Positions 8,894 through 48,099 of a DNA stretch of 64,000 bases are shown piece after piece. The stretch comes from a virus. Position 1 is the stretch's first letter, and every line of letters starts with the position of its first letter. Under the pieces are notes generated by a model, which was not told the origin of the DNA, searched no databases, and saw only the letters and a program-made list of their open reading frames with translations. Location: the UHGV virus genome UHGV-0211740; one strand, given 5' to 3'. The position numbers and the translations under genes were made by a program.

Positions 8894-9083
8894 CTTCCCC
8901 TAAGGCAAAGTTGTAAGTCCACTGACTGTCAAAGCATTCCTGAGATGCGCCAGCGGCAATAAGATCTGACCCTTTTATTTTTAAAAGGTCAGGGTAATCT
9001 TCATTAGGAACAGCGGTAAACACTTTTCCAACTAAAGGCTCTTGACCAATATAGAAGTTTGAATCTAAAACTTTAACTTTCAT
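8859..9083 (-). CDS. hypothetical small protein (paralog family A)
   Basis: 74-aa ORF; MKVKVLDSNFYIGQ, GSDLIAAGA, VEIVED. Confidence 0.45.
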   Translation of the reverse strand: MKVKVLDSNFYIGQEPLVGKVFTAVPNEDYPDLLKIKGSDLIAAGASQECFDSQWTYNFALGEDVEIVEDDCEG

Positions 9084-9367
9084 CAGCGGTCTCCATCGGG
9101 CGGCTGTGGAACGTAAACACTGTTACGAATCTCGTCAGCAGTGTAGTAACAAGTTTTCCCCTCTCTGTCTCTGGCAGCAATGTATTCAGCTATACCAATA
9201 AGTGCCATAGACTTGGTGGCGTATCTTTTAAGCTCGTTAGCTCCCCAGCAAAATCTCTGCCAAAACGGTATGAAACCGAATAGGTACACTTTCTGTTTCA
9301 CTATCCAATAAGTGCCTTTACAGATCACTTTAAACTCTGCAGCACTGTTGCTAACACCATTGCTCAT
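9083..9367 (-). CDS. hypothetical protein
   Basis: 94-aa ORF. Confidence 0.4.
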   Translation of the reverse strand: MSNGVSNSAAEFKVICKGTYWIVKQKVYLFGFIPFWQRFCWGANELKRYATKSMALIGIAEYIAARDREGKTCYYTADEIRNSVYVPQPPDGDR

Positions 9368-34295: not shown

Positions 34296-35579
34296 TCATT
34301 CCAGAACCTCCCAAGTGTCAGGGTTAACATTTCGGACGCAGATGCCGACAGGGAATTGGTAGTTGTTGTCTTCTGTCCTTGCTTGATATTTGAAGGTGAC
34401 AAACTTGCCGATCATTTCCTGCATCCTGTCATAGCTACGCTCCTCGTGCGTGCCTTTCATCTTCATTTTAACAACGATACCTTCCTTGTCAACGCAGATA
34501 AGAACACCTTCATCATTCTTATCTTTCTCAACGTCAATAACTTTCACCTCAGCATCGTTGAACTTTTTCCATTTCAATGCTTCAGATGTTCGCTGACCAT
34601 ATTCATATTTACCGCAGAAGTTACGCATGATAGTACCTTCATATCCTTCTGACATGAATACACCAACAGATTCTTCGCAATGATCAACTGTGTACGCAAG
34701 CTCTGCGTCAACAACCTTGATATGGTCAAGCATCAGAGTGGTAATGGTATCTTCTGCATCCATAAGGTCCTTGCATCTTCCAGATTCTGTTTCCGGATCC
34801 CACCATACCTTGTCACTAGGGATGTCGAAAATATGATACTCTAAGTCATAGCTACAGTACCCTCCGTAACGCAAATCATCACGAACAGGCTCAACATCAA
34901 CAGGAATATCTACCTTATTGAAGTTTTTGTATGTTGATAAGCCTGCCTTAATTGCGGCATGACGGCGTTTTTTATCTGCCTCGTAGTCTTTATCTATCTC
35001 GGCCTGAATCTCTTCCTGTGTGCGCCACCGTTTAGCAAGAGACACTATTTTCTGCAGAGGCAGACCATGAATATAGATCTCTCCGTCGAGCTGTTTAATC
35101 CCGGTGGTGAAGTGGAAAGAACGAAGTTGCTCCAGAAGCTTTCCTTGAATAGGGTAGGACTTATTACCACGGGAAATAAATTTAGGCTCACCGTTTTGGA
35201 AAACAACCAGTAGACGAAGGCCATCTAACTTACGCAAGATCCAGCAAGGTAATTTAAGTGCCTTTCCACGCTTCAGGTAGTCATGCATCAGCATGGGTAA
35301 AAGGTCAACCCCCTGCTCGCAATCTTCCATATTTTCAACATACCCCAGACGGACTTGTTTTTCCCACTTACTGATCGCTTCCAGCTCAGCCTGTTGCTCA
35401 GCTGTAGTTTCATTGGCACGGCCCACGTTCTTAGGTGTGCAGATCGTCTCTTTGTATTGCAGTTTACCATCAAGCTTGCCAAACTCTACGATAACCTTAT
35501 CACCATCCGTGAATACTTTCCACTGTTGGTAGCTGCCATCTTTGTTCAGTGCGTACAGTGTTGTTTTGATCTGATGCAT
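34296..35579 (-). CDS. ATP-dependent DNA ligase
   Basis: Nucleotidyltransferase motif I KLDGLR, motif IV EGYEGTIM, motif V LKWKKF. Confidence 0.75.
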   Translation of the reverse strand: MHQIKTTLYALNKDGSYQQWKVFTDGDKVIVEFGKLDGKLQYKETICTPKNVGRANETTAEQQAELEAISKWEKQVRLGYVENMEDCEQGVDLLPMLMHDYLKRGKALKLPCWILRKLDGLRLLVVFQNGEPKFISRGNKSYPIQGKLLEQLRSFHFTTGIKQLDGEIYIHGLPLQKIVSLAKRWRTQEEIQAEIDKDYEADKKRRHAAIKAGLSTYKNFNKVDIPVDVEPVRDDLRYGGYCSYDLEYHIFDIPSDKVWWDPETESGRCKDLMDAEDTITTLMLDHIKVVDAELAYTVDHCEESVGVFMSEGYEGTIMRNFCGKYEYGQRTSEALKWKKFNDAEVKVIDVEKDKNDEGVLICVDKEGIVVKMKMKGTHEERSYDRMQEMIGKFVTFKYQARTEDNNYQFPVGICVRNVNPDTWEVLE

Positions 35580-37703: not shown

Positions 37704-38051
37704 TCAGTAAATGTTCTGTTTAATCTCTATTCCAAACTTTTTGAACGAATCTGCAGCAAGCATAAATTTACGAGCTGCCGATGGGTTAGAAGTATGCACG
37801 AAAATCTTCACGTTGTCAACCACAGGTGGCTTGCCAAATACAAATAGCTCTTCCAGTCTCAATAAAACAGCATATCCGTCTTGATCAGAGTCTTCACCCA
37901 AATCGTGGTCAAAGAACCACTCTGTCACTCTTCGATACATTTTAGCAGAATTATTAAGAAACTCCATAGCCTCTTGTGAGGTTTTAAACCAAATTGCATC
38001 TGCCTGTCCGTAGTCAGCTGGGTTACGCAAATCATCTATCCAAACTTTCAT
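37704..38051 (-). CDS. hypothetical protein
   Basis: 115-aa ORF immediately upstream of the Sir2 gene. Confidence 0.4.
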   Translation of the reverse strand: MKVWIDDLRNPADYGQADAIWFKTSQEAMEFLNNSAKMYRRVTEWFFDHDLGEDSDQDGYAVLLRLEELFVFGKPPVVDNVKIFVHTSNPSAARKFMLAADSFKKFGIEIKQNIY

Positions 38052-38059
38052 ACATACCT

Positions 38060-38668
38060 CTAAAAATTTTCTATCGGTGTTTTTGAAGATAAAGCTAAAA
38101 CTATCTTATTCTCAATTCTTCGTAATCCTAATAGCAACCTACTATCATCTACAGTTTTAATCAAGTCTCTAAGAAGTTGCAGTTTACATTCTAAGTATCT
38201 CATGTGTGCCTCAATCTGCGTGGGGAAGGTTCCAAGATAAACCTGCGTGTCCTTAACCCCATCTTTGCAATAGGCAGCAAAAGATGGGCCTTTTCTTCTT
38301 ACTCCCATCAAACACTCCCCTCTTTGCGGCATCCTTGCTACAAAGAAGTTGTTTATTTCCCGGGGAACAAAAATACACGCTTCTGGGCAGTATATAAGAT
38401 TATTCTCGAAGAGAATATCTTTATCTAAAAATTTATCCCGCCAATCTTGTTTTTCCATCCAACGCTTGAAGTTGCTGAAGATTTTCCATTCTTCACAAAC
38501 TTCTACCATAGCATAAGCTTCAAATTTCTTGTTTTTAAGGTAGCACCTCCCTAGCATATTTGACCACGTCATATAAAAAGGACACATTATTCTCTTTCCA
38601 GTATCCTTGTCCAAAACCCTGACAGGATAGTCTGCATCATTAACACCAACACCATGTACAAGTTTCAT
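38060..38668 (-). CDS. putative homing-endonuclease-like protein with AP2-type DNA-binding segment
   Basis: YLGTFPTQIEAHMRY resembles the AP2 domain found in phage HNH homing endonucleases; weak. Confidence 0.35.
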   Translation of the reverse strand: MKLVHGVGVNDADYPVRVLDKDTGKRIMCPFYMTWSNMLGRCYLKNKKFEAYAMVEVCEEWKIFSNFKRWMEKQDWRDKFLDKDILFENNLIYCPEACIFVPREINNFFVARMPQRGECLMGVRRKGPSFAAYCKDGVKDTQVYLGTFPTQIEAHMRYLECKLQLLRDLIKTVDDSRLLLGLRRIENKIVLALSSKTPIENF

Positions 38669-38712
38669 ACAGACCTCTTAAGCTGAAATGATTAAAAAGA
38701 ACTTCCCCTTCT

Positions 38713-39669
38713 TCATTGCATATAGTCCTCGTTGTGGAAATAGTAGTCAAGTATCTCACGACGTTCCTGCTCAAGGAGGCAGTTCCACACATCCTCTGTG
38801 TAGTTGTTACGAATGAAGTTTACCATGCCATAAAACTCTTCGTCAATACGTTTAAAGATATCCTCATCCCAAATCTTCCAAGCTCTCCCTCTCATTACGG
38901 CCTTCCGTGCCAGGTAGTATGGAGATTTGATCTTCAACTGCAGGTCATAAGGGTAGTAAGGATTACGGATCATGTACCCTTCGCCCCTTGTTTCTGCAGC
39001 TAATTCTTTTGCATAGCTGAACGGAATTTCACGCACAGTGTGAGGACGTTTTGCACCAAGATACTTGGCAATACCGTCTAAAGCCGCTTCTGGTAGCATT
39101 ATTCCAGAATCATTGTATCTACAACCTATCAAATACGCACCATGATCCTCATGAACAATATGCGGGTCTGAAGGGTGACAAATTTCAAACATAAATGTCA
39201 TGTTTTCATGGCCCATAACCTTCTTGATAAGATCTAAATTGCCACATTGCTCCTGAATGGTTTCCTTTGCAAGGTTACAATATGGAGAATCAAGAGACCC
39301 AGTCGTTGAGAATAATAGTTCACCTTTATGAGAGGATACCACGCCAAGGAACCCGTTCTTTTTCTCTACAGCCGTCACAAGCTTATTGTCAGGTAGGTTG
39401 GTTGAGTTTTCTCCCAAGTTAAACACTTTTGTGAAGGGCCATGCCACAACATTCCCCTCGTTACCGACAACAATGCCTCGGCACTCCAGTAGACGCGGAG
39501 AAAAATGCCATAAATTGTTGTAGAATACTTTTCTGGCATATTTGTAGATCTTTAATCCGAGATCTGGATAATACCGACTGGTTACAAGACCTTTATCCAC
39601 TAAATCATCTGCATTAAAATACTTCATCATGCGTTCCTCATTTGTCATTTTGTTCCACAATCTTCCCAC
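38713..39669 (-). CDS. RNA ligase, Rnl1 (T4 RnlA) family
   Basis: LLECRGIVV, KVFNLGEN, motif I VEKKNGF, motif IV EGYMIR and motif V LKIKS line up with T4 Rnl1. Confidence 0.75.
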   Translation of the reverse strand: MGRLWNKMTNEERMMKYFNADDLVDKGLVTSRYYPDLGLKIYKYARKVFYNNLWHFSPRLLECRGIVVGNEGNVVAWPFTKVFNLGENSTNLPDNKLVTAVEKKNGFLGVVSSHKGELLFSTTGSLDSPYCNLAKETIQEQCGNLDLIKKVMGHENMTFMFEICHPSDPHIVHEDHGAYLIGCRYNDSGIMLPEAALDGIAKYLGAKRPHTVREIPFSYAKELAAETRGEGYMIRNPYYPYDLQLKIKSPYYLARKAVMRGRAWKIWDEDIFKRIDEEFYGMVNFIRNNYTEDVWNCLLEQERREILDYYFHNEDYMQ

Positions 39670-39748
39670 ACAAACAGTATCATGTCAACACTTGAAATGC
39701 TCAAAAGAACACGGTATACTGTCGTTAAAATTAAAACGGAGGGTCGCT

Positions 39749-40159
39749 ATGTCTAAAATGCTATATATCGTGCGTGGTCTACCAGGGTCTGGCAAATCAA
39801 CACTGGCAAATGCGTTATCTTTAGAAGGTCTGTATCCACATTTTGAGAACGACATGTTCTGGTACGACGATGATGGAAATTACAACTGGGATGCAAGTAA
39901 AGTGACACTTGCTGCAAAATGGTGCAAAGATAATATAGAAGATATGATGCGTATGGGGTACGACCGTGTCGTGGTAAGCAACACATTCACAAAAGAAAAG
40001 CATGTGCAAGAGTATATTGACATGGCGATCCGTAATGGGTATAATTACACAGTAATCGTGGTGGAGAATCGCCACGGTAACAAAAGTATCCACAATGTTC
40101 CAGAAAAGGTTGTGGATCGTATGGAACGTGAACTGAAAAACTGTATTAAACTTAAATGA
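39749..40159 (+). CDS. P-loop kinase, putative polynucleotide 5-prime kinase
   Basis: Start refined to the ATG after a GGAGGG RBS; Walker A VRGLPGSGKST like the T4 Pnk kinase domain. Confidence 0.55.
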   Translation: MSKMLYIVRGLPGSGKSTLANALSLEGLYPHFENDMFWYDDDGNYNWDASKVTLAAKWCKDNIEDMMRMGYDRVVVSNTFTKEKHVQEYIDMAIRNGYNYTVIVVENRHGNKSIHNVPEKVVDRMERELKNCIKLK

Positions 40160-40166
40160 GGATAGT

Positions 40167-40721
40167 ATGAAATATTTTATAACAAGTGACACACACTTTC
40201 TCCACCAGCGTGTTATGGAGTTCGATTCTTGTCAAAAGCACAGATCGCAGTATAACCACGATCTTGATAGCATGAATGCAGGGATCATAGACAAGTGGAA
40301 CTCAATTGTGTCACCATGGGACACTGTGTTCCACTTGGGAGACATTGCATGCACTAAGGATAAGAATATCAACAACTTACTGCCTGAAATTCTAAATATG
40401 CTGAACGGACATATTATTCTTGTTCGTGGTAACCATGACACAAGGACGACTGTCAGAATTATGAAAGAGTTCTGTCATGAGGTTGTAGATTATTACGAGC
40501 TTCGCCACAACAAGAATCTGATCTGTATGAGCCATTACCAGTTTGCAACGTGGAACAGAAAGCCCCACGGATCAGTTCAACTGTTTGGTCATGCTCACGG
40601 AACCACACAACAGTTATTTGGCAGGCAGTTGGATGTTGGTTGGGATGTATGGGGTAGACTGTTACCACTAGAAGAGGCATACAGCCTTGCAATGAGTTTT
40701 GATATTGACAGCAGGGAGTAA
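40167..40721 (+). CDS. calcineurin-like metallophosphoesterase
   Basis: Motifs SDTHF, LGDIA, RGNHD and GHAHG of the binuclear metallophosphoesterase fold. Confidence 0.7.
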   Translation: MKYFITSDTHFLHQRVMEFDSCQKHRSQYNHDLDSMNAGIIDKWNSIVSPWDTVFHLGDIACTKDKNINNLLPEILNMLNGHIILVRGNHDTRTTVRIMKEFCHEVVDYYELRHNKNLICMSHYQFATWNRKPHGSVQLFGHAHGTTQQLFGRQLDVGWDVWGRLLPLEEAYSLAMSFDIDSRE

Positions 40722-40768
40722 TCCCTGCTATATTAAAGAAAATAGCCACACAAGGAGAATCAGGAGAT

Positions 40769-41119
40769 ATGAAAGATGAGGATAAGCTGCCCTATCTTAA
40801 AGTCCCACTTGGGATACTTTCTCTGTCGAAAGTTTTGAATACTACAACTGGAGAGGTGGTTATTCTTGATCTGTATGACAAGGTAGTATACTGCTACCTG
40901 CACAACTGGTATAAGCTTGGAGGAAATTCACGATTCACACCGAGCACAAGGAAAATTGCAGCTGATACAGGGATTAAGAAAACAAAAGCAGCAGAATGCG
41001 TTAGAACTTTAGAGTGTGCGGGGATAGTTGAAACTTCCACACAAGGGAGAGGGAAAAGATGCACATTTTCTAAAGTTTTACCACCAGAAGAAGTGATTCG
41101 CATGTCAACAACTGGTTAG
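40769..41119 (+). CDS. hypothetical protein, possible winged-helix DNA-binding protein
   Basis: 116 aa; STRKIAADTGIKKTKAAECVRTLECAGIV resembles a wHTH; lies just upstream of the palindrome array. Confidence 0.35.
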   Translation: MKDEDKLPYLKVPLGILSLSKVLNTTTGEVVILDLYDKVVYCYLHNWYKLGGNSRFTPSTRKIAADTGIKKTKAAECVRTLECAGIVETSTQGRGKRCTFSKVLPPEEVIRMSTTG

Positions 41120-41195
41120 ACCAGTAAAAACTTAAATATTTGTATTATAAAGGTATGTATGTTTTATGTCCACACCAGCACAAAGATTACAAACT

Positions 41196-41274
41196 GTCCG
41201 TGAGACGGACACTACTGTCCGCCACGCGGACACATCTGCCCGTAATACGGACACTAACTGTCCGTGATACGGAC
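41196..41274. promoter_or_regulatory. array of four 15-bp palindromic operator-like sites
   Basis: GTCCGTGAGACGGAC, GTCCGCCACGCGGAC, GCCCGTAATACGGAC and GTCCGTGATACGGAC at 41196, 41217, 41238 and 41260; 21-22 bp periodicity. Confidence 0.55.
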
Positions 41275-41779
41275 ACATAAAGAATATAACTAAAATAACT
41301 AAAGAATAAAAATAAAAAGATCTAGTACTTATTGTACTAAAGTGCATATACTTAACTTATGTAGAATATACTAGATCTAAAGTACTATGTTTTAAATTTA
41401 TTACTTACTGGTATAGTGTCGGCCCTTCATTGGCACTCGCCTATGAGGGGCGAGATGCCGGGCCTCCATAGTGCACACAATAACAGGCGTGCATACGTGC
41501 ATGGCTGTTCACATGTGTGGGAGCGAAGCTATAGCGCAGGCCAAAGGCCGAGCACTAATGTGGACCGCCGACGAAAGCTTGCCAGCGCAGTAAGGAGTCG
41601 GTTGGGAGTCTCCCGCGCGAGTTTGTTTAAAGTTTATGTGTGGAAACTGGCAAGAAGGCCTCTAAATCGCTCTACAGCTGTGTGAACTACACTGGGTAAG
41701 GCAATCACACCAGTTTGATAGAAAAGCTCGTTACAAAGCGATACAGTGAGTTTTTCTATAACCTGAAGAGGAGTCAGCT

Positions 41780-42358
41780 ATGAGCTCACGCAAACATGAC
41801 CGAGAAAAGATTGCAAAACGTTATCAGGATGAAGAACAGATGGAGAAAACTTTCAAGTGGAGGCCAGGTTTCCAGCGCAATCATTCGGACGCTCGTGATC
41901 GTAAGCATCCAGATAAGTGGTTAACACCGCCAAACGATGACATGCAAGTCGGTGATGAGAAGGAGTTGTCACCGGGGAAAGATGGCAACTACATTCGCAC
42001 TAAGGAAGCTGGTCCAAAGGATGACAGCTATCTTGTAGATAAGGTTCTTGCTAGTATTGATGTAGATGTTGATACTGTACGAGACACTTTCCTTGGTTGG
42101 TATCGCACAGGGTTTTTCGACATCAAGGCTATTCGTCGTGTTTGCGATATTAAAAAGTCTGCCTACGATGACGACTCTCTACATCGCACTCTAAGACAAT
42201 ATTCAGAGAGATACGGTCATCCAGTTATCACTCTTGACGATATTAACGAAGTGATGTATCATGTAGAGGTTGTTGCAGGTAGGTTCGGTGATGCATATCT
42301 CGGTATTCTTTCTGCAAAGGATGAGGTAATGTTAAATAAAATTTACTATGAACGCTGA
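41780..42358 (+). CDS. hypothetical protein
   Basis: 192-aa ORF, first long plus-strand ORF after the control region. Confidence 0.5.
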   Translation: MSSRKHDREKIAKRYQDEEQMEKTFKWRPGFQRNHSDARDRKHPDKWLTPPNDDMQVGDEKELSPGKDGNYIRTKEAGPKDDSYLVDKVLASIDVDVDTVRDTFLGWYRTGFFDIKAIRRVCDIKKSAYDDDSLHRTLRQYSERYGHPVITLDDINEVMYHVEVVAGRFGDAYLGILSAKDEVMLNKIYYER

Positions 42359-42557
42359 GGAGCGCTTAATGAACAACCCGGTAGCAAAGAACTGCAATAA
42401 GTTCAACAAGCCTGCAATTCACACTGACAGGAAAAAGAGCTGGTCTCCGGATATTGACGAGGAGCTTGAGGATTACTTCGAAGGCTTGGCCCTTAATGCA
42501 GATGAGATTGCGATTAAAGAGTACGCAGACAGGAAGGATAAGGCCGGAATCTGTTGA
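42348..42557 (+). CDS. hypothetical protein
   Basis: 69-aa ORF overlapping upstream stop. Confidence 0.35.
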   Translation: MNAEERLMNNPVAKNCNKFNKPAIHTDRKKSWSPDIDEELEDYFEGLALNADEIAIKEYADRKDKAGIC

Positions 42558-42582
42558 CAAAAACAGTGTTACCTGATAAGAT
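42554..42582 (+). promoter_or_regulatory. sigma70 consensus-like promoter
   Basis: TTGACA, 17-bp spacer, TAAGAT; upstream of 42634. Confidence 0.45.
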
Positions 42583-42633
42583 CTGCAATATGATGTGATG
42601 CAATTTTAACTTACGAGGTCTACAGGTAATGCT

Positions 42634-42876
42634 ATGTTTAAGGTTAAGCTCGTTTTTCGTTCCATGAATGAGGATTATTTAGAAGATGAAGGTGAATTTC
42701 GTGCGCTAGATGATGCAATAGATTTTGCCAACGACTTAGCTTGTATGAATACTGGATACGGGTTATGTTGTTGGGATGGCGGTGTTCAGATCGGTGACAG
42801 CAAGATTTTCTACTTCTACCCTGAGCCAGATAACAAACAAATTAAGTATGTTTTATTTATTTGCGCTTTACAATGA
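42634..42876 (+). CDS. hypothetical protein
   Basis: 80-aa ORF. Confidence 0.45.
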   Translation: MFKVKLVFRSMNEDYLEDEGEFRALDDAIDFANDLACMNTGYGLCCWDGGVQIGDSKIFYFYPEPDNKQIKYVLFICALQ

Positions 42877-43164
42877 GGTTGTTTTCATGTATGATGATGA
42901 ATATCCAATTTAAAGACGAATTTGATGGCTTTATCTCCGGATGCTTTGAAACAGGATTCGGAGAAGGCTGAGTTCCCCCTAGAGGGCTTGATAGTGCACC
43001 ACACTTAAAATGGTAGGGGCAGCCAGCACATGACGATGTGACCCCAGCCAACCTGTAATAAGGTCGAGCCCAAGCGCGGTAATGGGTCTCTGGTAACCCA
43101 CTTGTTGGGTCTTGCTGGTCCAGGACGCTGGACAAGTCGCAGGGAACACCACCCTGCGGCGAAC

Positions 43165-43193
43165 TTGACAATTAGTATCTGCCGTGATAAAAT
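43165..43193 (+). promoter_or_regulatory. sigma70 consensus-like promoter
   Basis: TTGACA, 17-bp spacer, TAAAAT; upstream of 43222. Confidence 0.45.
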
Positions 43194-43221
43194 CCACCTA
43201 TCACGTGATAATGGAGGAAAC

Positions 43222-43563
43222 ATGGCGGATACAACTAAAAAGCGTCGCCGTAGAGGCAGACCTCTGAAAGAGGAGTCCAACGCCATTCAGCTAGAGAAGA
43301 ACATTCTTGATATGAAGGAATCTTTTATAGCGATGGTTCCAGAAGCTCATAAAGTTCTAAGAGAGCTGATGTTGGATCCGAAAACCAAACAAAATATTCG
43401 TCAAAGCATTGCAGAGTATGTCCTTGACAAGGCAGACAGAATGCAGGAAGAATATGATGAGATGTTTGGTGAAGAGGAAGAAGAGGTGGTAGTAGAAGAG
43501 GCTGAAAAACCAGCACCTTTTATGCCGTTTACCACCGAAATACAGCCTGTTAGTAACAGTTAA
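43222..43563 (+). CDS. small DNA-binding protein with AT-hook-like motif
   Basis: Start refined to MADTTKK after a GGAGG RBS; KRRRRGRPLK AT-hook-like segment and acidic C-terminus. Confidence 0.45.
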   Translation: MADTTKKRRRRGRPLKEESNAIQLEKNILDMKESFIAMVPEAHKVLRELMLDPKTKQNIRQSIAEYVLDKADRMQEEYDEMFGEEEEEVVVEEAEKPAPFMPFTTEIQPVSNS

Positions 43564-43572
43564 AATATTTTC

Positions 43573-43601
43573 TTGACAAACTTTGCTTAACAGTGTAATA
43601 T
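43573..43601 (+). promoter_or_regulatory. sigma70 consensus promoter for the tRNA cluster
   Basis: TTGACA at 43573, 17-bp spacer, TAATAT at 43596. Confidence 0.5.
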
Positions 43602-43659
43602 TATAAATATGGTCTCCCACCTTTTCTGGCGGCTCAGGTGTAAAAGAAAGCCACCCAGT

Positions 43660-43734
43660 GCCCTGTTAGCTTAGTGGATAAAGCAGCGGCCTTCTAAGCC
43701 GTTGACACTGGTTCGAGTCCAGTACGGGGTGCCA
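43660..43734 (+). tRNA. tRNA-Arg (anticodon TCT)
   Basis: 7-bp acceptor stem, T-arm CTGGTTCGAGTCCAG, anticodon loop CTTCTAA, 3-prime CCA encoded. Confidence 0.75.
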
Positions 43735-43738
43735 AATC

Positions 43739-43825
43739 GGGGAGTTATACCGTAGAGGTAGCGGTGTAGACTGTAAATCTATTGTCATTGCGACTCGGGT
43801 GGTTCGACTCCATCACTCCCCACCA
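43739..43825 (+). tRNA. tRNA-Tyr (anticodon GTA)
   Basis: Acceptor GGGGAGT/ACTCCCC, anticodon loop CTGTAAA, long variable arm, T-loop GGTTCGACTCC, CCA encoded. Confidence 0.75.
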
Positions 43826-43936
43826 AAATCCCATATTTGTGATAAATAATATAGATAATGACATTGATGTTTATCGTCGTTTATACTAGTCCCTAACTGT
43901 TCGAAAATCAGTGTCATTATCAGTGTTGTTTATAAA

Positions 43937-44026
43937 AGAGAGTAGGGAGCATGGTGCTCAAGCGGTCTTGAAAACCGTCCCGTTGAGATATCCTCGATGA
44001 TGGTTCGATTCCATTACTCTCTGCCA
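43937..44026 (+). tRNA. tRNA-Ser (anticodon TGA)
   Basis: Perfect 7-bp acceptor AGAGAGT/ACTCTCT, anticodon loop CTTGAAA, long variable arm, T-loop TTCGATT, CCA encoded. Confidence 0.75.
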
Positions 44027-44124
44027 GATCGTGGATCATGAAATTAAGCGAGCGCCGGAAGCAGAACCGGATTAACAAATGTTACAGTCGTCATCGCCGA
44101 CTAGCAGCATGATCCACATAATAT

Positions 44125-44221
44125 GCTAGGTAAGCCCTTTGGCAAGGGCGAGGATTTTTAATCCTGAAAATAGACGAAGCAGTCGTTGAATACATAGGTG
44201 GTTCGATTCCATCGCCTAGCA
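44125..44221 (+). tRNA. atypical 97-nt tRNA-like gene (possible pseudo-tRNA or non-canonical tRNA)
   Basis: Perfect acceptor stem GCTAGGT/GCCTAGC and canonical T-arm GGTGGTTCGATTCCATC, but no clean 5-bp anticodon stem with 7-nt loop (closest is AGGA/TCCT with loop TTTTTAA) plus about 30 nt of extra internal sequence; no encoded CCA. Confidence 0.35.
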
Positions 44222-44228
44222 CCTTTTT

Positions 44229-44304
44229 GCTGATGTAGCACAATTGGTAGTGCAATTGATTTGTAATCAATAGGTTGCAGGTTCAAGTCCTGCCATCAGC
44301 ACCA
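44229..44304 (+). tRNA. tRNA-Thr (anticodon TGT)
   Basis: Acceptor GCTGATG/CATCAGC, anticodon stem-loop ATTGA-TTTGTAA-TCAAT, T-loop GGTTCAAGTCC, CCA encoded. Confidence 0.8.
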
Positions 44305-44305
44305 T

Positions 44306-44380
44306 GTCCCTGTAGCTGGAAGGTTCAAGCAAGCGACTCATAATCGCCAGACGGTGGTTCAATTCCACCCAGGGCCACCA
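44306..44380 (+). tRNA. tRNA-Met or Ile2 (anticodon CAT)
   Basis: Acceptor GTCCCTG/CAGGGCC with one mismatch, anticodon loop CTCATAA, T-arm GGTGGTTCAATTCCACC, CCA encoded. Confidence 0.7.
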
Positions 44381-44391
44381 AATTATAAATA

Positions 44392-44468
44392 CTCCGCGTA
44401 GCTCAGCTTGGTAGAGCGCCTGATTTGGGATCAGGAGGTCGAGTGTTCGAATCACTCCGTGGAGACCA
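44392..44468 (+). tRNA. tRNA-Pro (anticodon TGG)
   Basis: C1-G72 acceptor CTCCGCG/CGTGGAG, D-arm AGCTCAGCTTGGTAGAGC, anticodon loop TTTGGGA, T-loop GTTCGAATC, CCA encoded. Confidence 0.8.
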
Positions 44469-44511
44469 ATTTCACTATACCTTAAACATATATACAAAAG
44501 GAATCCTAAAA

Positions 44512-44781
44512 ATGTATACACTTAAAATTGTAGAACGTGTAAATCCAACCCATACTGTAGATTTTCGTGACGATTTCAACCCTCTTGCTGTAAATCTTCG
44601 AGAGTCGTATCATGAACTAAGCTGCGATGCAGTAGTGGTCTTCTTTGAAGACAACTCTGAAGGGGCAGTAGCTTGTGTTGTCGATAGCGAGCAGAAGTTT
44701 TATATTTACAGAGATGTGGATGCTTACTTGATGAATGAGAATGCAGTTACTGTTAGAATCATCCACCGAGTGCCTCGATAA
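44512..44781 (+). CDS. hypothetical protein
   Basis: Start refined to the internal ATG (MYTLKIV) immediately after tRNA-Pro; 89 aa. Confidence 0.45.
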   Translation: MYTLKIVERVNPTHTVDFRDDFNPLAVNLRESYHELSCDAVVVFFEDNSEGAVACVVDSEQKFYIYRDVDAYLMNENAVTVRIIHRVPR

Positions 44782-44886
44782 GTATTAGTCTCCTTTTAGT
44801 TAGTTTAGATCTATTTAGGTTACTCAATTTTAACCCGCCCCGTTAGCTGTATGGCTGCGGGGTTTTTTCGTTTCTGGAGCCGTAAA

Positions 44887-45285
44887 ATGATTTCAGTTTT
44901 AACATGGCTGGGCAGGTATAAAGGGGTCATAAAAGGTTTAGTTTTTGCAGCAACTCTTGGTATAGCCTATCTTGGTGCCGTATATTGGTTTAATTCTAAG
45001 CTTGACACTGCTTACCAGGAGGGTGTGACAGCAACAGAGTTGAAGTGGGAACGGATCCTTGATCAGCAACAAAAGCAAGCTGACAGGATTAAAATGGGCC
45101 ATGCAGAGGAGGTTAAAAACCTTGAAAAATCCCTTTCTGACCTGCAGGATAAATTAAGTATAGCTGAGAAGGCAGGTAAAGAAAAGCAGATTATTTACCT
45201 CCAATCGCCTGAAGGTAAGAAGTCAACACTTCCTGATCAGCTTATAGAGATTTATAATGAGAGTATCAATCAGGAGGGTCGATGA
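44887..45285 (+). CDS. putative i-spanin (Rz-like)
   Basis: Start refined downstream of a terminator-like hairpin; N-terminal TM VIKGLVFAATLGIAYLGAVYWF followed by a coiled-coil periplasmic domain. Confidence 0.5.
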   Translation: MISVLTWLGRYKGVIKGLVFAATLGIAYLGAVYWFNSKLDTAYQEGVTATELKWERILDQQQKQADRIKMGHAEEVKNLEKSLSDLQDKLSIAEKAGKEKQIIYLQSPEGKKSTLPDQLIEIYNESINQEGR

Positions 45286-45569
45286 GAGTTGCTGCACTAC
45301 TTATTATGTGCTTGTTATTATGTGGGTGTACAACCAGCGTTGAGAGAGAATACAAGATTGACCCTCCGGATGTAGGGAGGTTGATTGTTAAACCACCAGA
45401 GGGTGCCATGAAACCACCTGCTAAAGCCGTGCCTTTGAAGAAGGGTGCCCCGGATGCGGTGAATTCTGGCATTATGAGGGATAATAACCTATCTTGCAGT
45501 AATGATAGAGCTAAATTAATCATTTTGCAAGACTATATTAGAACACTGTTTCCAAAGGAGAGAGGTTAA
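45282..45569 (+). CDS. putative o-spanin (Rz1-like lipoprotein)
   Basis: Lipobox LLLCGC near the N-terminus, proline-rich mature region, overlaps i-spanin stop. Confidence 0.55.
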   Translation: MRVAALLIMCLLLCGCTTSVEREYKIDPPDVGRLIVKPPEGAMKPPAKAVPLKKGAPDAVNSGIMRDNNLSCSNDRAKLIILQDYIRTLFPKERG

Positions 45570-45994
45570 TGTCTAAGATTTACGGACCGTGTTCTGAAAA
45601 GCAGAAGATGATCCTGGAAAATGATGCAGATATTTTGGTAATTGGCGGGGCTGCAGGATCTGGCAAGTCATTCCTCTTGCAGCTAATGCCGCTTAAAATT
45701 ATTGATGACCCGCACAGCTCTGTGGTTATGTTCCGAAGAACAACCCCACAGTTGGAAGGTGAGGGGGGACTATGGCCTAAAGCAGTAGCTATTTATAGTG
45801 ATCTGCCAGAAAACATTAAGCCAAAGTTTAGAGAGAAGGATCATAAGTTCATTTTTCCACGGTTTGATCCGAGCACTGGCAAGTGGGACAGGAGCAAAAA
45901 GGGAGCTGTTGTAAAATACTGCCACATGGAATATGTCCAAGATAAGCTTAACCATCAGGGTTTGGAATACACCATGGTTTGCTTCGATGAGGGT
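45569..45994 (+). CDS. terL: terminase large subunit, exon 1 (ATPase N-terminal part)
   Basis: Walker A GGAAGSGKS and Walker B MVCFDE; reading frame terminates at a TAA that begins the intron. Confidence 0.75.
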
Positions 45995-46877
45995 TAATTT
46001 GTAGCTCTCGTAAAACCTCCCTAATTGCGGGGAAATCTTTATTATTGACACCACCAATCTGTCATGGTAACATGATAGAGGCTTCGAAGAGAGATCGAAG
46101 GTATGGTAACAGTGTGTTAATTTAGATAATCCGCAGCGAAGCATCCGAGAGGATGAACGTTCAACGACTAGTCGAAAGACGTAGAATCAAGCGATTCGAA
46201 ACGGGAGGGTGCATGTGTAATACTAAAAAATGTATGGATTGCCAAAGAGTTCTACCTATTGATGATTTCTTTTTATCATCTAAGAGCAAGGATGGATACT
46301 CAGGTACATGCAAGGAATGCTATATGTACTACAGGAAGGGTGGATCTCGTAAAAACAAAAATATGGTTAAGAGAGATGACGCAGCATTGTTTATTCAAGA
46401 CTTGCTGAAGAAAGGTGAACTTTTTGAATGCAAATCTTGTCATAAAAGTATGCTCGCTGATAGTTTTTACACAAAACGTGACTATGGCAAAGTATATCTG
46501 GTTACGAACAGGTGTAAGATGTGTGAAAAGTTTTATCAGATTGAGAAGAAATTTCACATAACAAAAGATGAATACTATCGTCTACTCTCAGATCAAGATC
46601 ATAAGTGTGCCATTTGTAGAATATCTCTTGATGAGTATAGGACGCAAGGGTACAGAGATTTCTTTTGTGTTGATCATGACCATAAAACTGGTGCTGTAAG
46701 AGGGTTGCTTTGTGATAAATGCAACAGAGCTTTAGGCTTCTTCCAAGAAGATGAGGAAACTATTCTTAAAGCGGCAGAATATTTACACATTCATAAGATA
46801 TAGTCTGGTCTGCATGGAGACATGCAGCTGCCTGAAAATGGCGGGGCAAGACTAGCGACCTTGCCCGAACATAAACG
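45995..46877 (+). mobile_element. group I self-splicing intron carrying a homing endonuclease ORF (3-prime boundary approximate)
   Basis: Core elements in canonical order: P AATTGCGGGGAAA (~46030), Q AATCCGCAGC (46128), R GTTCAACGACTAGTC (46159), S AAGATATAGTCTGG (46795); internal guide GCTCTC pairs with exon end GAGGGT. Confidence 0.65.
46153..46803 (+). CDS. intron-encoded homing endonuclease, Endonuclease VII/HNH-like
   Basis: Cys-rich N-terminus and CVDHDHKTGAVRGLLCDKCN Endo VII core; ORF lies between intron R and S elements; true start may be an internal ATG. Confidence 0.65.
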   Translation: MNVQRLVERRRIKRFETGGCMCNTKKCMDCQRVLPIDDFFLSSKSKDGYSGTCKECYMYYRKGGSRKNKNMVKRDDAALFIQDLLKKGELFECKSCHKSMLADSFYTKRDYGKVYLVTNRCKMCEKFYQIEKKFHITKDEYYRLLSDQDHKCAICRISLDEYRTQGYRDFFCVDHDHKTGAVRGLLCDKCNRALGFFQEDEETILKAAEYLHIHKI

Positions 46878-47999
46878 ACACAATTCGAATGGGAGCAGAT
46901 AGACTATCTGATGTCTCGTTTGCGATCTCAGTCAAAGTATCCATCAAGAATGGTTATCAGCTGTAACCCCGACTCAGAGCATATGCTTGCCAAACTGGTT
47001 AGATGGTGGCTGGACGATGAAGGGTATCCAGATCCGGAGAAATGTGGCAAGAAAAGATATTTTATCCGGCGTGACGGTGAATTTATTTGGGGAGACTCTA
47101 AAGAGGAGTTGATAGAGAAATACACCACAGTTAATGGACTGGGTGTGGAGATCAAGCCAAGACCGTTGTCATTCTCGTTTATAGGCGCAACAATATTCGA
47201 TAATCCTGTCTGCTTGAGAGACAACCCAGAATACCTTGCTTTCCTTGAAGGTCTGCCAGAACTGGAAAAAGCTCAGCTTCTTCATGGTAACTGGTTTGCC
47301 AAACCTGAGGGTGCGAACTACTTTCAAAGATCTTTCCTTCGTGATGCCGACAGCGTACCTTTAGGGTCTGTGTCTTGCAGGGCATGGGATAAAGCTGGAA
47401 CTGAAAGAACTTCAGGTAATAAATTCCCTGACTTTACTGCCAGTGTCAAGGTAAGTAAAGATAGTGATGGATTCTACTACCTGTCAGGAGATTATTGTCC
47501 GGAGAACGTGGATGACGGGAGATATTCCACAGGTCTGGAAGGCAAGTTCTGTAAAAAGGCTGGCGAACGAGATGTGATCATCAGGAAACAGGCGCAGTTT
47601 GATGGTGATGATTGTATAATCGTATTCTCTGTGGACCCCGGTCAGGCAGGTAAGAGTGAGTTCTTAACCTCATCCAGATCCTTGCTCGCCGAAGGTTTCA
47701 GGGTTGAAGAAGACCCAATGCCTTCCAACAAATCTAAACTGACAAGGTTCTCACCTTTTGCCAATCTTGCCCAACAAGGGATGGTGAGGATTGTAAAATC
47801 CAGTTTCCATCCTGATACTTTGGAAGCATTTCTGACTGAACTTGAAAAGTTCAACGGGGAAAGATCAACATTTAACAGAAAAGACGACTGGGCCGACTGT
47901 GTAGCATCTGCGATTAATTTCCTGGAGAAAGAGGAGGTAGCACTGCCTTGTGTGATCCCATCAATATCATCACCTTCTATGTTTAAGCGTTTTATCTAA
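46878..47999 (+). CDS. terL: terminase large subunit, exon 2 (ATPase C-motif and nuclease domain); exon start approximate
   Basis: In-frame continuation with no stops from 46875; contains VISCNP coupling-motif-like segment and C-terminal nuclease-like acidic residues; possible splice acceptors after G at 46877, 46892, 46895 or 46898. Confidence 0.65.
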   Translation, partial: TQFEWEQIDYLMSRLRSQSKYPSRMVISCNPDSEHMLAKLVRWWLDDEGYPDPEKCGKKRYFIRRDGEFIWGDSKEELIEKYTTVNGLGVEIKPRPLSFSFIGATIFDNPVCLRDNPEYLAFLEGLPELEKAQLLHGNWFAKPEGANYFQRSFLRDADSVPLGSVSCRAWDKAGTERTSGNKFPDFTASVKVSKDSDGFYYLSGDYCPENVDDGRYSTGLEGKFCKKAGERDVIIRKQAQFDGDDCIIVFSVDPGQAGKSEFLTSSRSLLAEGFRVEEDPMPSNKSKLTRFSPFANLAQQGMVRIVKSSFHPDTLEAFLTELEKFNGERSTFNRKDDWADCVASAINFLEKEEVALPCVIPSISSPSMFKRFI

Positions 48000-48099
48000 G
48001 TGTTGCCAATCTTGATCAGATGTGGTACAATAGAGTAATTGGAGATACTAGCCCTCTGACGAGGGCTATTTTGTTATACTGTTTTGAGGGGTAAAGCTT

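Follow-up and report, generated by a model that had tools for sequence, protein, structure and literature searches.

The virus genome UHGV-0211740, of which we analyzed a stretch of 64,000 nucleotides (nt; hereafter the window), carries between two plus-strand genes a GC-rich island that lies directly before a promoter and raises the question of what it encodes. A first-pass annotation made from the sequence alone had placed the island at 42880-43165 and had proposed either a structured RNA or an imported element. We find that the island is very probably a functional noncoding RNA element. Comparative sequence evidence establishes the locus as a noncoding, plus-strand, structured RNA under purifying selection, with a junction module common to phage lineages. 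The window is from a Vequintavirus (an rV5-like coliphage): the region around the island is 99.4% identical to Vequintavirinae sp. EcoIv14a_Aya and approximately 96% identical to many rV5-like Escherichia phages. Coordinates of the features discussed are collected in Table 1.

Conservation of the island in Vequintavirus relatives

The enrichment in G+C was borne out. G+C content is 0.507 over 42880-43165 and 0.575 over the trimmed island at 42972-43164, compared with 0.431 for the whole window, so that the trimmed island stands 14 points above the window mean; the flanking coding DNA has values of 0.40 to 0.41. The interval itself was upheld only in part. Positions 42972-43164 hold the conserved RNA, whereas the left third (42880-42971) is outside it and contains a candidate promoter, a micro-open reading frame (micro-ORF) and a lineage-specific hairpin. 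The earlier judgment that no plausible ORF occupies the island also stood, as the minus-strand ORFs of 104, 93, and 72 amino acids (aa) that overlap it gave no match in Pfam or PHROGs. The flanking plus-strand ORFs match phrog_5676 (E 1e-42) and phrog_3330 (E 1e-47).

Comparison with related phage genomes had been named as a check on the island, and it was found to be kept in 119 Vequintavirus phage records at 95 to 99% identity as well as in diverged syntenic relatives drawn from IMG/VR and metagenomes (L020/L051, L079, L081, and L083). Gene order in the diverged relatives is ORF80 homologue, island, promoter, phrog_3330 homologue, tRNA-Arg, and tRNA-Tyr. Identity to the L020-type relatives was 69% in the flanking coding DNA, 91% in the 5' module at 42975-43018, 83% in a 41-nt core, and 49% in hairpin H3 at 43016-43045. 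Judged by such identities between lineages, the island is under stronger selection than the neighboring genes, and within the lineage no part of it is more conserved than the 5' module. When H3 was aligned by hand on its structure with L020, L079, L081, and L083, 7 of the 10 pairs had changed on both sides and none was broken; for example, GGGG..CACAU-GACG-AUGUG..CCCC is replaced in relatives by GGAAC..CUACG-GACG-CGUAG..GUUCC. Alignment comparisons thus show that H3, together with helices P1 and P2 of the core, has been kept by compensatory changes. The 3' half of the island could not be aligned between lineages, yet its hairpins persist: the relatives have H4-like and H5-like hairpins with different sequences, and H6 is missing from the L020 type. 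A long-range pairing in the minimum-energy fold of the window (GGGCUUG with CGAGCCC) was rejected, as its partner is absent in other lineages and changes in L079-type RNAs are uncompensated.

These comparisons also bear on whether the island might be protein coding, through a minus-strand ORF or a plus-strand microprotein. Many GenBank records do annotate a "hypothetical protein" here, and the KDEFDGF stretch of the micro-ORF at the left edge survives in L020/L051 as an 8-codon ORF (MKDEFDGF and a stop codon) with a good Shine-Dalgarno sequence; in L020-type relatives this ORF lies just upstream of the promoter of the RNA. However, the micro-ORF is outside the conserved RNA. Within the region, substitutions are compensatory for RNA pairing, indels of 1 to 6 nt occur, including lengths not divisible by three, and hairpins outlast alignable sequence in the 3' half. 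A coding function is scarcely credible, and the comparisons show the island to be noncoding.

The promoters of the diverged relatives suggest how the RNA is delimited. A TTGACA-17-TATACT promoter (11 of 12 consensus positions, with TG) lies approximately 25 nt before the first hairpin, and a second promoter follows directly after the last hairpin; L081 has a promoter at the position equivalent to that of the promoter at 43165-43193 in the window. The RNA of the relatives, approximately 170 nt in length, is bracketed by these two promoters, which argues that it is a unit of its own. In the window, the candidate promoter upstream of the island overlaps the end of ORF80 and is not kept in L020-type relatives, which use another promoter; a 29-nt hairpin of the window lineage (42935-42963) stands where those relatives have theirs. 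Transcription from the candidate promoter could begin near 42902 and give an RNA of up to approximately 260 nt.

The junction core and its distribution among phages

The core of the island is predicted to form a junction of three helices, P1, P2, and a hypothetical P3. We aligned 44 distinct core sequences without gaps (alignment A1) and built a covariance model (R1) from them. In the alignment, 96.4% of cells pair in a register that leaves one G of P1 bulged, and slid registers reach at most 44%. The covariation score of the core was 0.363, compared with 0.087 for shuffled alignments, and none of 500 shuffles attained the observed value. A P1 register without the bulge was rejected, as P1 pairs in 91% of cells with the bulged G but in 82% without it, and the covariation score is almost twice as high with the bulge. 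The three inner pairs of P1 occur as AU 27, UA 8, UG 5, and CG 4 (first pair); CG 27, GC 8, UA 7, AU 1, and GU 1 (second pair); and CG 31, GC 12, and other 1 (third pair). Because the G-U pairs fit only an RNA of the plus strand, the RNA is assigned to that strand. For the outer pair of P2, 43 sequences have A-U and L064/65 has G-C, which recurs in the independent lineages L089 and L090; positions 3 to 5 of the P2 loop vary (GUAAAA, GUGAAA, GUAGCA, GUAACA). In the second of two core copies in the contig L028, the P3 loop has 5 nt and the linker is one nucleotide shorter, a variation in length that fits a hairpin presenting conserved junction nucleotides. R1 gave one credible site in the window, at 43047-43087 (66.8 bits), and recovered the other lineages at 37 to 69 bits. 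A second match at 34709 (16 bits) lies inside a 427-aa ORF and was dismissed as a chance match.

The core extends far beyond the Vequintaviruses. Megablast returned 472 records and blastn 1017, and beyond the 119 Vequintaviruses only approximately 40 to 44 nt align (43043-43087, 86 to 98% identity). The matching phages include T4, RB32, JS98, T4-like phages of Klebsiella, Enterobacter, Citrobacter, Kosakonia, and Yersinia, and Pseudomonas phage PsgM04F. The same core is found in approximately 1000 phage records, and the phages that carry it infect Escherichia, Klebsiella, Enterobacter, Citrobacter, Yersinia, and Pseudomonas. Scanning IMG/VR, metagenomes, and bacterial genomes with sequence patterns brought in further lineages. 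In PsgM04F and nine related contigs, the core lies within or adjoins tRNA arrays and is co-oriented with them; in these RNAs long flanking helices draw the ends together, and no protein gene follows. In L091 the core is 175 nt after tRNA-Ile. In L090 it is approximately 1 kb after two tRNAs, with an intrinsic terminator 25 nt downstream of the motif and before a gene; this terminator does not overlap P1. L089 is a 1.06-Mb megaplasmid of Pseudomonas serbica (NZ_JAQIYM010000090.1), in which the core sits in a GC-rich noncoding stretch of approximately 850 nt (about 1050-1800) that ends in an intrinsic terminator, is flanked by an HNH/Ref-like protein gene and an oligoribonuclease-like gene, and may represent a much larger RNA. 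Single lineages with the core are also represented by L084, L069/L057, and L076. In every case examined the core has the orientation of the surrounding genes, and in at least four lineages it is tied to tRNA regions.

This distribution was weighed against the proposal that the island was imported or is mobile, or that it acts at the DNA level, for instance as a recombination hotspot or the target of a homing endonuclease, with its G+C content reflecting foreign origin. The excess in G+C over the window mean would fit such an origin, as would a core that is 97.8% identical to T4 over 44 nt between unrelated flanks, a patchy distribution among lineages with absence from sister genera, and a position in a tRNA region, such regions being known hotspots of gene turnover. 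However, no terminal inverted or direct repeats were found at the island borders in a repeat search, which gave one 10-nt imperfect inverted pair and one 22-nt direct pair of 73% identity, neither at the borders; there were no target duplications, and no endonuclease or transposase ORF is located at the island. Only the core of 41 to 44 nt is common to other phage groups. The island had no match in 5,426 Escherichia coli genomes, and among 185,579 bacterial and archaeal species representatives a strict core pattern gave no match and a loose pattern a single one, the megaplasmid L089. Covariation that includes G-U pairs, together with strict co-orientation with transcription, points to an RNA. 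Patchy transfer of a module is compatible with such a function and does not replace it. Import as the explanation of the island is therefore very improbable, and of the two possibilities offered by the first-pass annotation it is the structured RNA that is upheld, by conservation above the flanks, compensatory changes, and a covarying core.

The Rfam covariance search that had been suggested for the island returned no family on the island or the core. No Rfam 15 family matched the core at E<=1, either in a search of 38000-48000 of the window or at seven loci from other lineages; the matches within 38000-48000 were tRNAs and a group I intron, all off the core. The core alignment provides a seed alignment for a new RNA family that is absent from Rfam 15. 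Searches of the literature on the sequence, on vs.8 and denV, and on phage RNA motifs gave no description of the element, which may nevertheless be one of the 10,006 candidates listed without a name in PMC10690425. We regard it as an orphan structured phage RNA, a familiar general kind, and within that kind as a new family; there is a real, although less than even, chance that it also constitutes a new functional class.

Candidate roles of the RNA

The RNA would be approximately 190 nt long, from 42972 to 43164, and would form a string of hairpins around the 41-nt three-helix junction. We propose that, like the stable RNAs of the T4 tRNA cluster, it is produced as a small RNA, whether transcribed separately or released by processing, and that its invariant junction may dock a single conserved partner, which could be a protein of the host or the phage or else a small ligand. 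The transcript bearing the module, which would be a free small RNA here and the vs.8 mRNA leader in T4-like phages, would then recruit or titrate that partner. Approximately 18 unpaired or junction nucleotides are nearly invariant across host genera, which argues for one conserved partner and not for pairing with variable targets; it is very likely, as far as sequence conservation can indicate, that the core contacts something universal. The carriers of the module differ, being a free RNA here, an RNA embedded among tRNAs in PsgM04F-type phages, and the leader of an mRNA in T4-like phages, and such variety suggests that the docking module is portable. We consider the chances about even that the whole statement is correct, namely, that the tRNA region yields a small RNA by which a conserved protein or ligand is recruited or titrated. 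More tentatively, the junction could be a new module, either an aptamer for a small ligand or a host machine or a new self-cleaving ribozyme, which large virulent phages of at least five lineages would have put in differing transcripts (free small RNAs in tRNA arrays and the vs.8 leader in T4). Its purpose is possibly to sense or neutralize a conserved host factor, for example, a tRNA-directed defense nuclease. Knowing the partner could clarify, in part, why phages have tRNA regions and the stable RNAs in them.

The genomic setting supports a place in the stable-RNA region. Six tRNA genes identified by ARAGORN start approximately 500 nt downstream of the island on the same strand. In sister genera (GAP31-type and Erwinia-phage-type Vequintavirinae), the phrog_3330 gene is located inside tRNA arrays, with tRNA-Cys approximately 90 nt upstream and tRNA-Tyr just downstream, and the RNA is lacking; R1 gave no match in these phages even with filters off. 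The slot of the island in Vequintavirus is thus filled by tRNA genes in the sister genera, and therefore the island belongs to the stable-RNA region. Since phrog_3330 persists there without the RNA, the RNA is not tied to the phrog_3330 gene, which appears from these comparisons to be a neighbor and not demonstrably part of the RNA locus.

The main rival to a free small RNA is a cis-acting leader, that is, a riboswitch-like aptamer, a protein operator, or a put-like antitermination RNA, controlling the genes downstream: phrog_3330 and the tRNAs in the window and vs.8 in T4-like phages. In approximately 900 T4-like (Tevenvirinae) genomes the core is in a spacer of 110 to 200 nt directly upstream of vs.8, following denV or an inserted ORF, and for this setting a leader is the better fit. 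The Karamvirus-like contig L028 has tandem copies before vs.8 (9023-9064 and 9137-9176), each with its own upstream hairpin domain. The constant co-orientation of the core with downstream genes, the lack of a terminator between the core and the next gene in the window, the attenuator-like position of the L090 terminator, and the small junction with invariant linkers and covarying stems, which is the usual appearance of an aptamer, are all consistent with cis control. However, the downstream genes are unrelated (vs.8, phrog_3330, tRNAs, a 78-aa ORF, and an Orn-like exonuclease), PsgM04F-type phages have no protein gene after the core, and in the closest relatives a consensus promoter immediately after the RNA serves the downstream gene separately. 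The retention of phrog_3330 in sister genera that lack the RNA also speaks against such control, as does the behavior of a candidate switch helix between the 3' strand of P1 and a conserved GGCCC in T4-like leaders, which was rejected because it does not covary. On balance, we rate a cis-acting leader as a possible but somewhat unlikely account of the locus.

The T4-like leaders have a second element, GCCA(A/U/C)GGAA(U)GGCCC, which forms a hairpin with AGGA in the loop (L004 1570-1590, L001 1575-1592). It follows the core by 30 to 55 nt and precedes the vs.8 start by 25 to 35 nt. Its nucleotide sequence is conserved whatever the reading frame, and the window lacks it. No vs.8 homologue was found near the core in the window or in PsgM04F-type loci. 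In T4 itself (NC_000866) the core is at 64859-64900 (L088 2360-2401), 6 kb from rnaC and rnaD, and the reference annotation, which starts vs.8 at 64912, runs the reading frame through it, as if the core were coding. The core and the conserved Vs.8 N terminus (..PYLSLM) have an in-frame stop between them in 14 of the 15 T4-like genomes that could be tested, and only T4 is open. Because in-frame stops separate the two elsewhere, the annotated T4 start is over-extended, and the true vs.8 start is probably approximately 40 codons downstream of it. One of the best-studied genomes thus holds the core unannotated inside an over-extended vs.8 frame, and gene-call corrections follow both for this start and for the spurious rV5-like "hypothetical proteins." Finding the partner of the core would also give a handle on the regulation of vs.8, whose product has been described as a terminase-ATPase-like protein that activates the defense sensor Avs2; the vs.8 leader is not mentioned in the report of that activity (bioRxiv 10.64898/2026.04.30.721860).

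Several observations weigh against the small RNA with a docking junction. Most homologues were gathered by sequence patterns, and the invariance of the core is thus partly an effect of ascertainment; the covariation of the P1 flanks is not, because the search patterns never included them. Helices H1, H2, and P3 never vary, and covariation gives no support for their pairing. In the window lineage an alternative closing helix (GACCC 43041-43045 with GGGUC 43084-43088) has two compensatory columns and competes with H3, and the two may alternate. The folding z-score of 42900-43170 (271 nt) is -2.48 on the plus strand and -0.86 on the minus strand, but for the trimmed 193 nt it is -1.39 and -1.30, respectively, no better than shuffles or than the opposite strand; because folding energy alone is weak, the structure claim rests on comparative evidence. 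No terminator-like site was found 3' of the island, whose 3' end would consequently need processing or read-through. Finally, the approximately 900 T4-like genomes carry the core in an mRNA leader and not in a free small RNA, which fits a cis role in those phages.

The need of a terminator-less RNA for some processing step would be answered if the core were a small self-cleaving ribozyme, or an RNase recognition element, that cuts polycistronic transcripts of the early or tRNA region. The varied intergenic contexts, frequent in phages and near tRNAs and with no constant gene partner, resemble those of the hammerhead, twister, and hatchet ribozymes; the core is compact with invariant junction nucleotides, and the flanking helices of PsgM04F-type RNAs join the ends. 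Twister is likewise known from contexts related to phages and to tRNAs, and its P4 loop, ..CCGG-UCCCAAGC-CCGG-AUAA.., is similar to the P3 region GAGC-CCAAGC-GCGG-UAA. However, the twister-like CCCAAGC loop is not conserved: the CCC of the twister pseudoknot is lost among cores whose P3 loops read CAAAGU, AAGAGU, CUUUUG, and others, and the partner of a would-be twister stem at 43066 varies between G, U, and A without compensation. No Rfam ribozyme model, twister included, matched at E<=1. We consider cleavage by the core, or by an RNase that recognizes it, improbable.

In genomic setting, comparison with other known RNAs places the proposed small RNA nearest to T4 rnaC and rnaD (species 1 and 2), which are phage-encoded structured RNAs of 120 to 140 nt and of no known function, co-oriented with the tRNA cluster at which they lie; the island shares this location in a phage tRNA region. 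Homology to them was not detected, as blastn with a word size of 7 gave chance matches of 9 to 17 nt (E>0.3), none in the island. T4 rnaC ends in a tRNA-like T arm, whereas nothing tRNA-like was detected in the island: the tRNAs called by ARAGORN are all outside it, and a search for tRNA-like or transfer-messenger RNAs with the Rfam tRNA clan gave no match in 42880-43165. Also near in setting are the large ornate RNAs ROOL and GOLLD, structured RNAs with no known function that phages and prophages conserve, frequently next to tRNA genes. They measure 500 to 800 nt, compared with approximately 190 nt for the island and approximately 41 nt for the shared unit, and their Rfam models do not match; the noncoding region of L089 is nearer to them in size.

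In architecture the nearest RNAs are small three-way-junction riboswitch aptamers, such as the purine class, which likewise have a short closing helix, two hairpins, an invariant junction, and variable loops, and on sequence grounds the core has the covarying helices and invariant junction of a conserved aptamer. Its occurrence in T4-like 5' leaders, sometimes in tandem, is reminiscent of glycine aptamers. Riboswitches differ in that no Rfam riboswitch matches the core, the core has no coherent set of regulated genes, and many copies are in tRNA arrays. Only in the Tevenvirinae, before vs.8, was a leader arrangement of this kind found; elsewhere the core is followed by tRNAs, by unrelated ORFs, or by a terminator of its own.

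The put RNAs of HK022 and the boxB of lambda nut are promoter-proximal, orientation-dependent short RNAs that bind a universally conserved host machine. P2 in some lineages (ACCU-GUAAAA-AGGU) is loosely like the boxB sequence, GCCCU-GAAAA-AGGGC, a likeness we treat as a lead only. The put and nut elements differ from the core, which has no boxA, no N-like protein, and another loop length. The P2 hexaloop GUAAUA is identical to the 1093-1098 loop of helix 44 of 23S rRNA (the 1095 loop of the GTPase-associated center), and both are in a three-helix junction. The order of the helices differs and positions 3 to 5 of the core loop vary freely, and the likeness probably reflects a shared loop fold and not mimicry. 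Mimicry of the tRNA-Tyr anticodon loop, the 16S 530 loop, 5S rRNA, or a type I-E CRISPR repeat was likewise considered on the basis of short matches, and it was rejected because they are not conserved across lineages.

Neighboring genes and other features of the window

The first-pass annotation had described a near-consensus TTGACA-17-TAAAAT promoter followed by a small protein gene with an AT-hook-like motif, and both were confirmed. The promoter matches 11 of 12 consensus positions, has a TG upstream, and forms the right edge of the island. The 113-aa ORF downstream opens with MADTTKKRRRRGRPLKEES, and its product has a RRRRGRPLKEESNAI motif at the N terminus and an acidic tail. The protein contains KKRRRRGRPLK, which has the R-G-R-P core and basic flanks of an AT-hook, and DNA binding by the protein is putative. 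The stretch GRPLKEESNAI is invariant across 19 homologues. The protein had no Pfam match, and its AlphaFold model is all-helical and of low confidence (predicted local distance difference test score, pLDDT, of 63.8), too low for a fold search.

Table 1. Features of the RNA locus and its surroundings in the window
Feature	Positions	Strand	Basis or remark
Candidate sigma-70 promoter, TTTACA-17-TATGAT	42867-42895	+	Consensus scan, 10/12, pattern match only
26-codon micro-ORF (MMMNIQFKDEFDGFISGCFETGFGEG) with hairpin 42935-42942/42956-42963	42891-42971	+	Sequence, translation
5' module: H1 CCC-UAGA-GGG (42975-42986), H2 AGUG-CACCA-CACU (42993-43005), then UAAAAUGGUAGG	42975-43018	+	
Hairpin H3, GGGG/CAGCCAG/CACAU-GACG-AUGUG/A/CCCC	43016-43045	+	Compensatory changes
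Three-helix-junction core	43047-43087	+	Covariance model R1, covariation
P1	43047-43050 (GCCA) with U43083 and 43085-43087 (GGU), G43084 bulged		Strong covariation
P2, ACCU-GUAAUA-AGGU, loop GUAAUA	43051-43054 with 43061-43064		Outer pair covaries
Linker J2/3, CGA here, C-N-A generally	43065-43067		C and A invariant
P3 (hypothetical), GC with GC	43068-43069 with 43076-43077		Never varies
P3 loop, six free nucleotides	43070-43075		Sequence variable
Linker J3/1, GGUAA here, G-R-U-A-A generally	43078-43082		Invariant
3' hairpins	43096-43158	+	Predicted folds
H4, ACCCA-CUUGU-UGGGU	43096-43110	+	Predicted fold
H5, GUCCAG-GACG-CUGGAC	43111-43136	+	Predicted fold
H6, CGCAGGG-AACACCA-CCCUGCG	43138-43158	+	Predicted fold
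Near-consensus promoter of downstream gene, TTGACA-17-TAAAAT	43165-43193	+	Consensus scan
113-aa gene, phrog_3330 (ATG 43222, stop 43563)	43222-43563	+	PHROG match, function unknown
tRNA cluster (Arg, Tyr, Ser, Thr, Met, Pro)	43660-44468	+	ARAGORN, Rfam

The earlier count of two GC-rich islands held. The first, at approximately 41400-41700, has a G+C content of 0.535 and no Rfam match, and the two islands are unrelated in sequence. It was found only in the 119 Vequintavirus records, at 85 to 97% identity, and is less conserved than the second island; no counterpart was detectable in L081-type relatives or other phage groups. Next to it, 40769-41400 has a layout like that of a replication origin: a gene for a helix-turn-helix replication-initiation-like protein (phrog_12838, E 3.5e-72) comes first, then four spaced inverted repeats GTCCG-N5/6-CGGAC at about 41195-41275, and then a very AT-rich stretch at 41280-41400.

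Other observations concern the tRNA region and its surroundings. A weak tRNA-model match at 44125-44221 (29.4 bits, at the gathering score) was not called by ARAGORN; phage JLBYU08 has an annotated tRNA-Stop(tta) of approximately 100 nt at the homologous position, and the match may represent a tRNA of suppressor-like or long-arm type, or else a pseudogene. Of two adjacent genes at 39629-40721, one codes for a P-loop kinase-like protein (..GLPGSGKST..) and the other for a metallophosphoesterase, annotated in a relative as AAA ATPase and phosphoesterase; the pair, near the tRNA region, is reminiscent of polynucleotide kinase/phosphatase RNA-repair modules. Eighteen "Campylobacter phage" records are approximately 96% identical to rV5-like coliphages over the island region, and their host labels are probably unreliable. 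Finally, a group I intron match (RF00028, 44.8 bits, E 5.9e-9, just below the gathering score of 50) at 45985-46827 starts where the ORF of the terminase large subunit (45569-45997) stops short, and from this sequence match an intron seems to interrupt the terminase gene.

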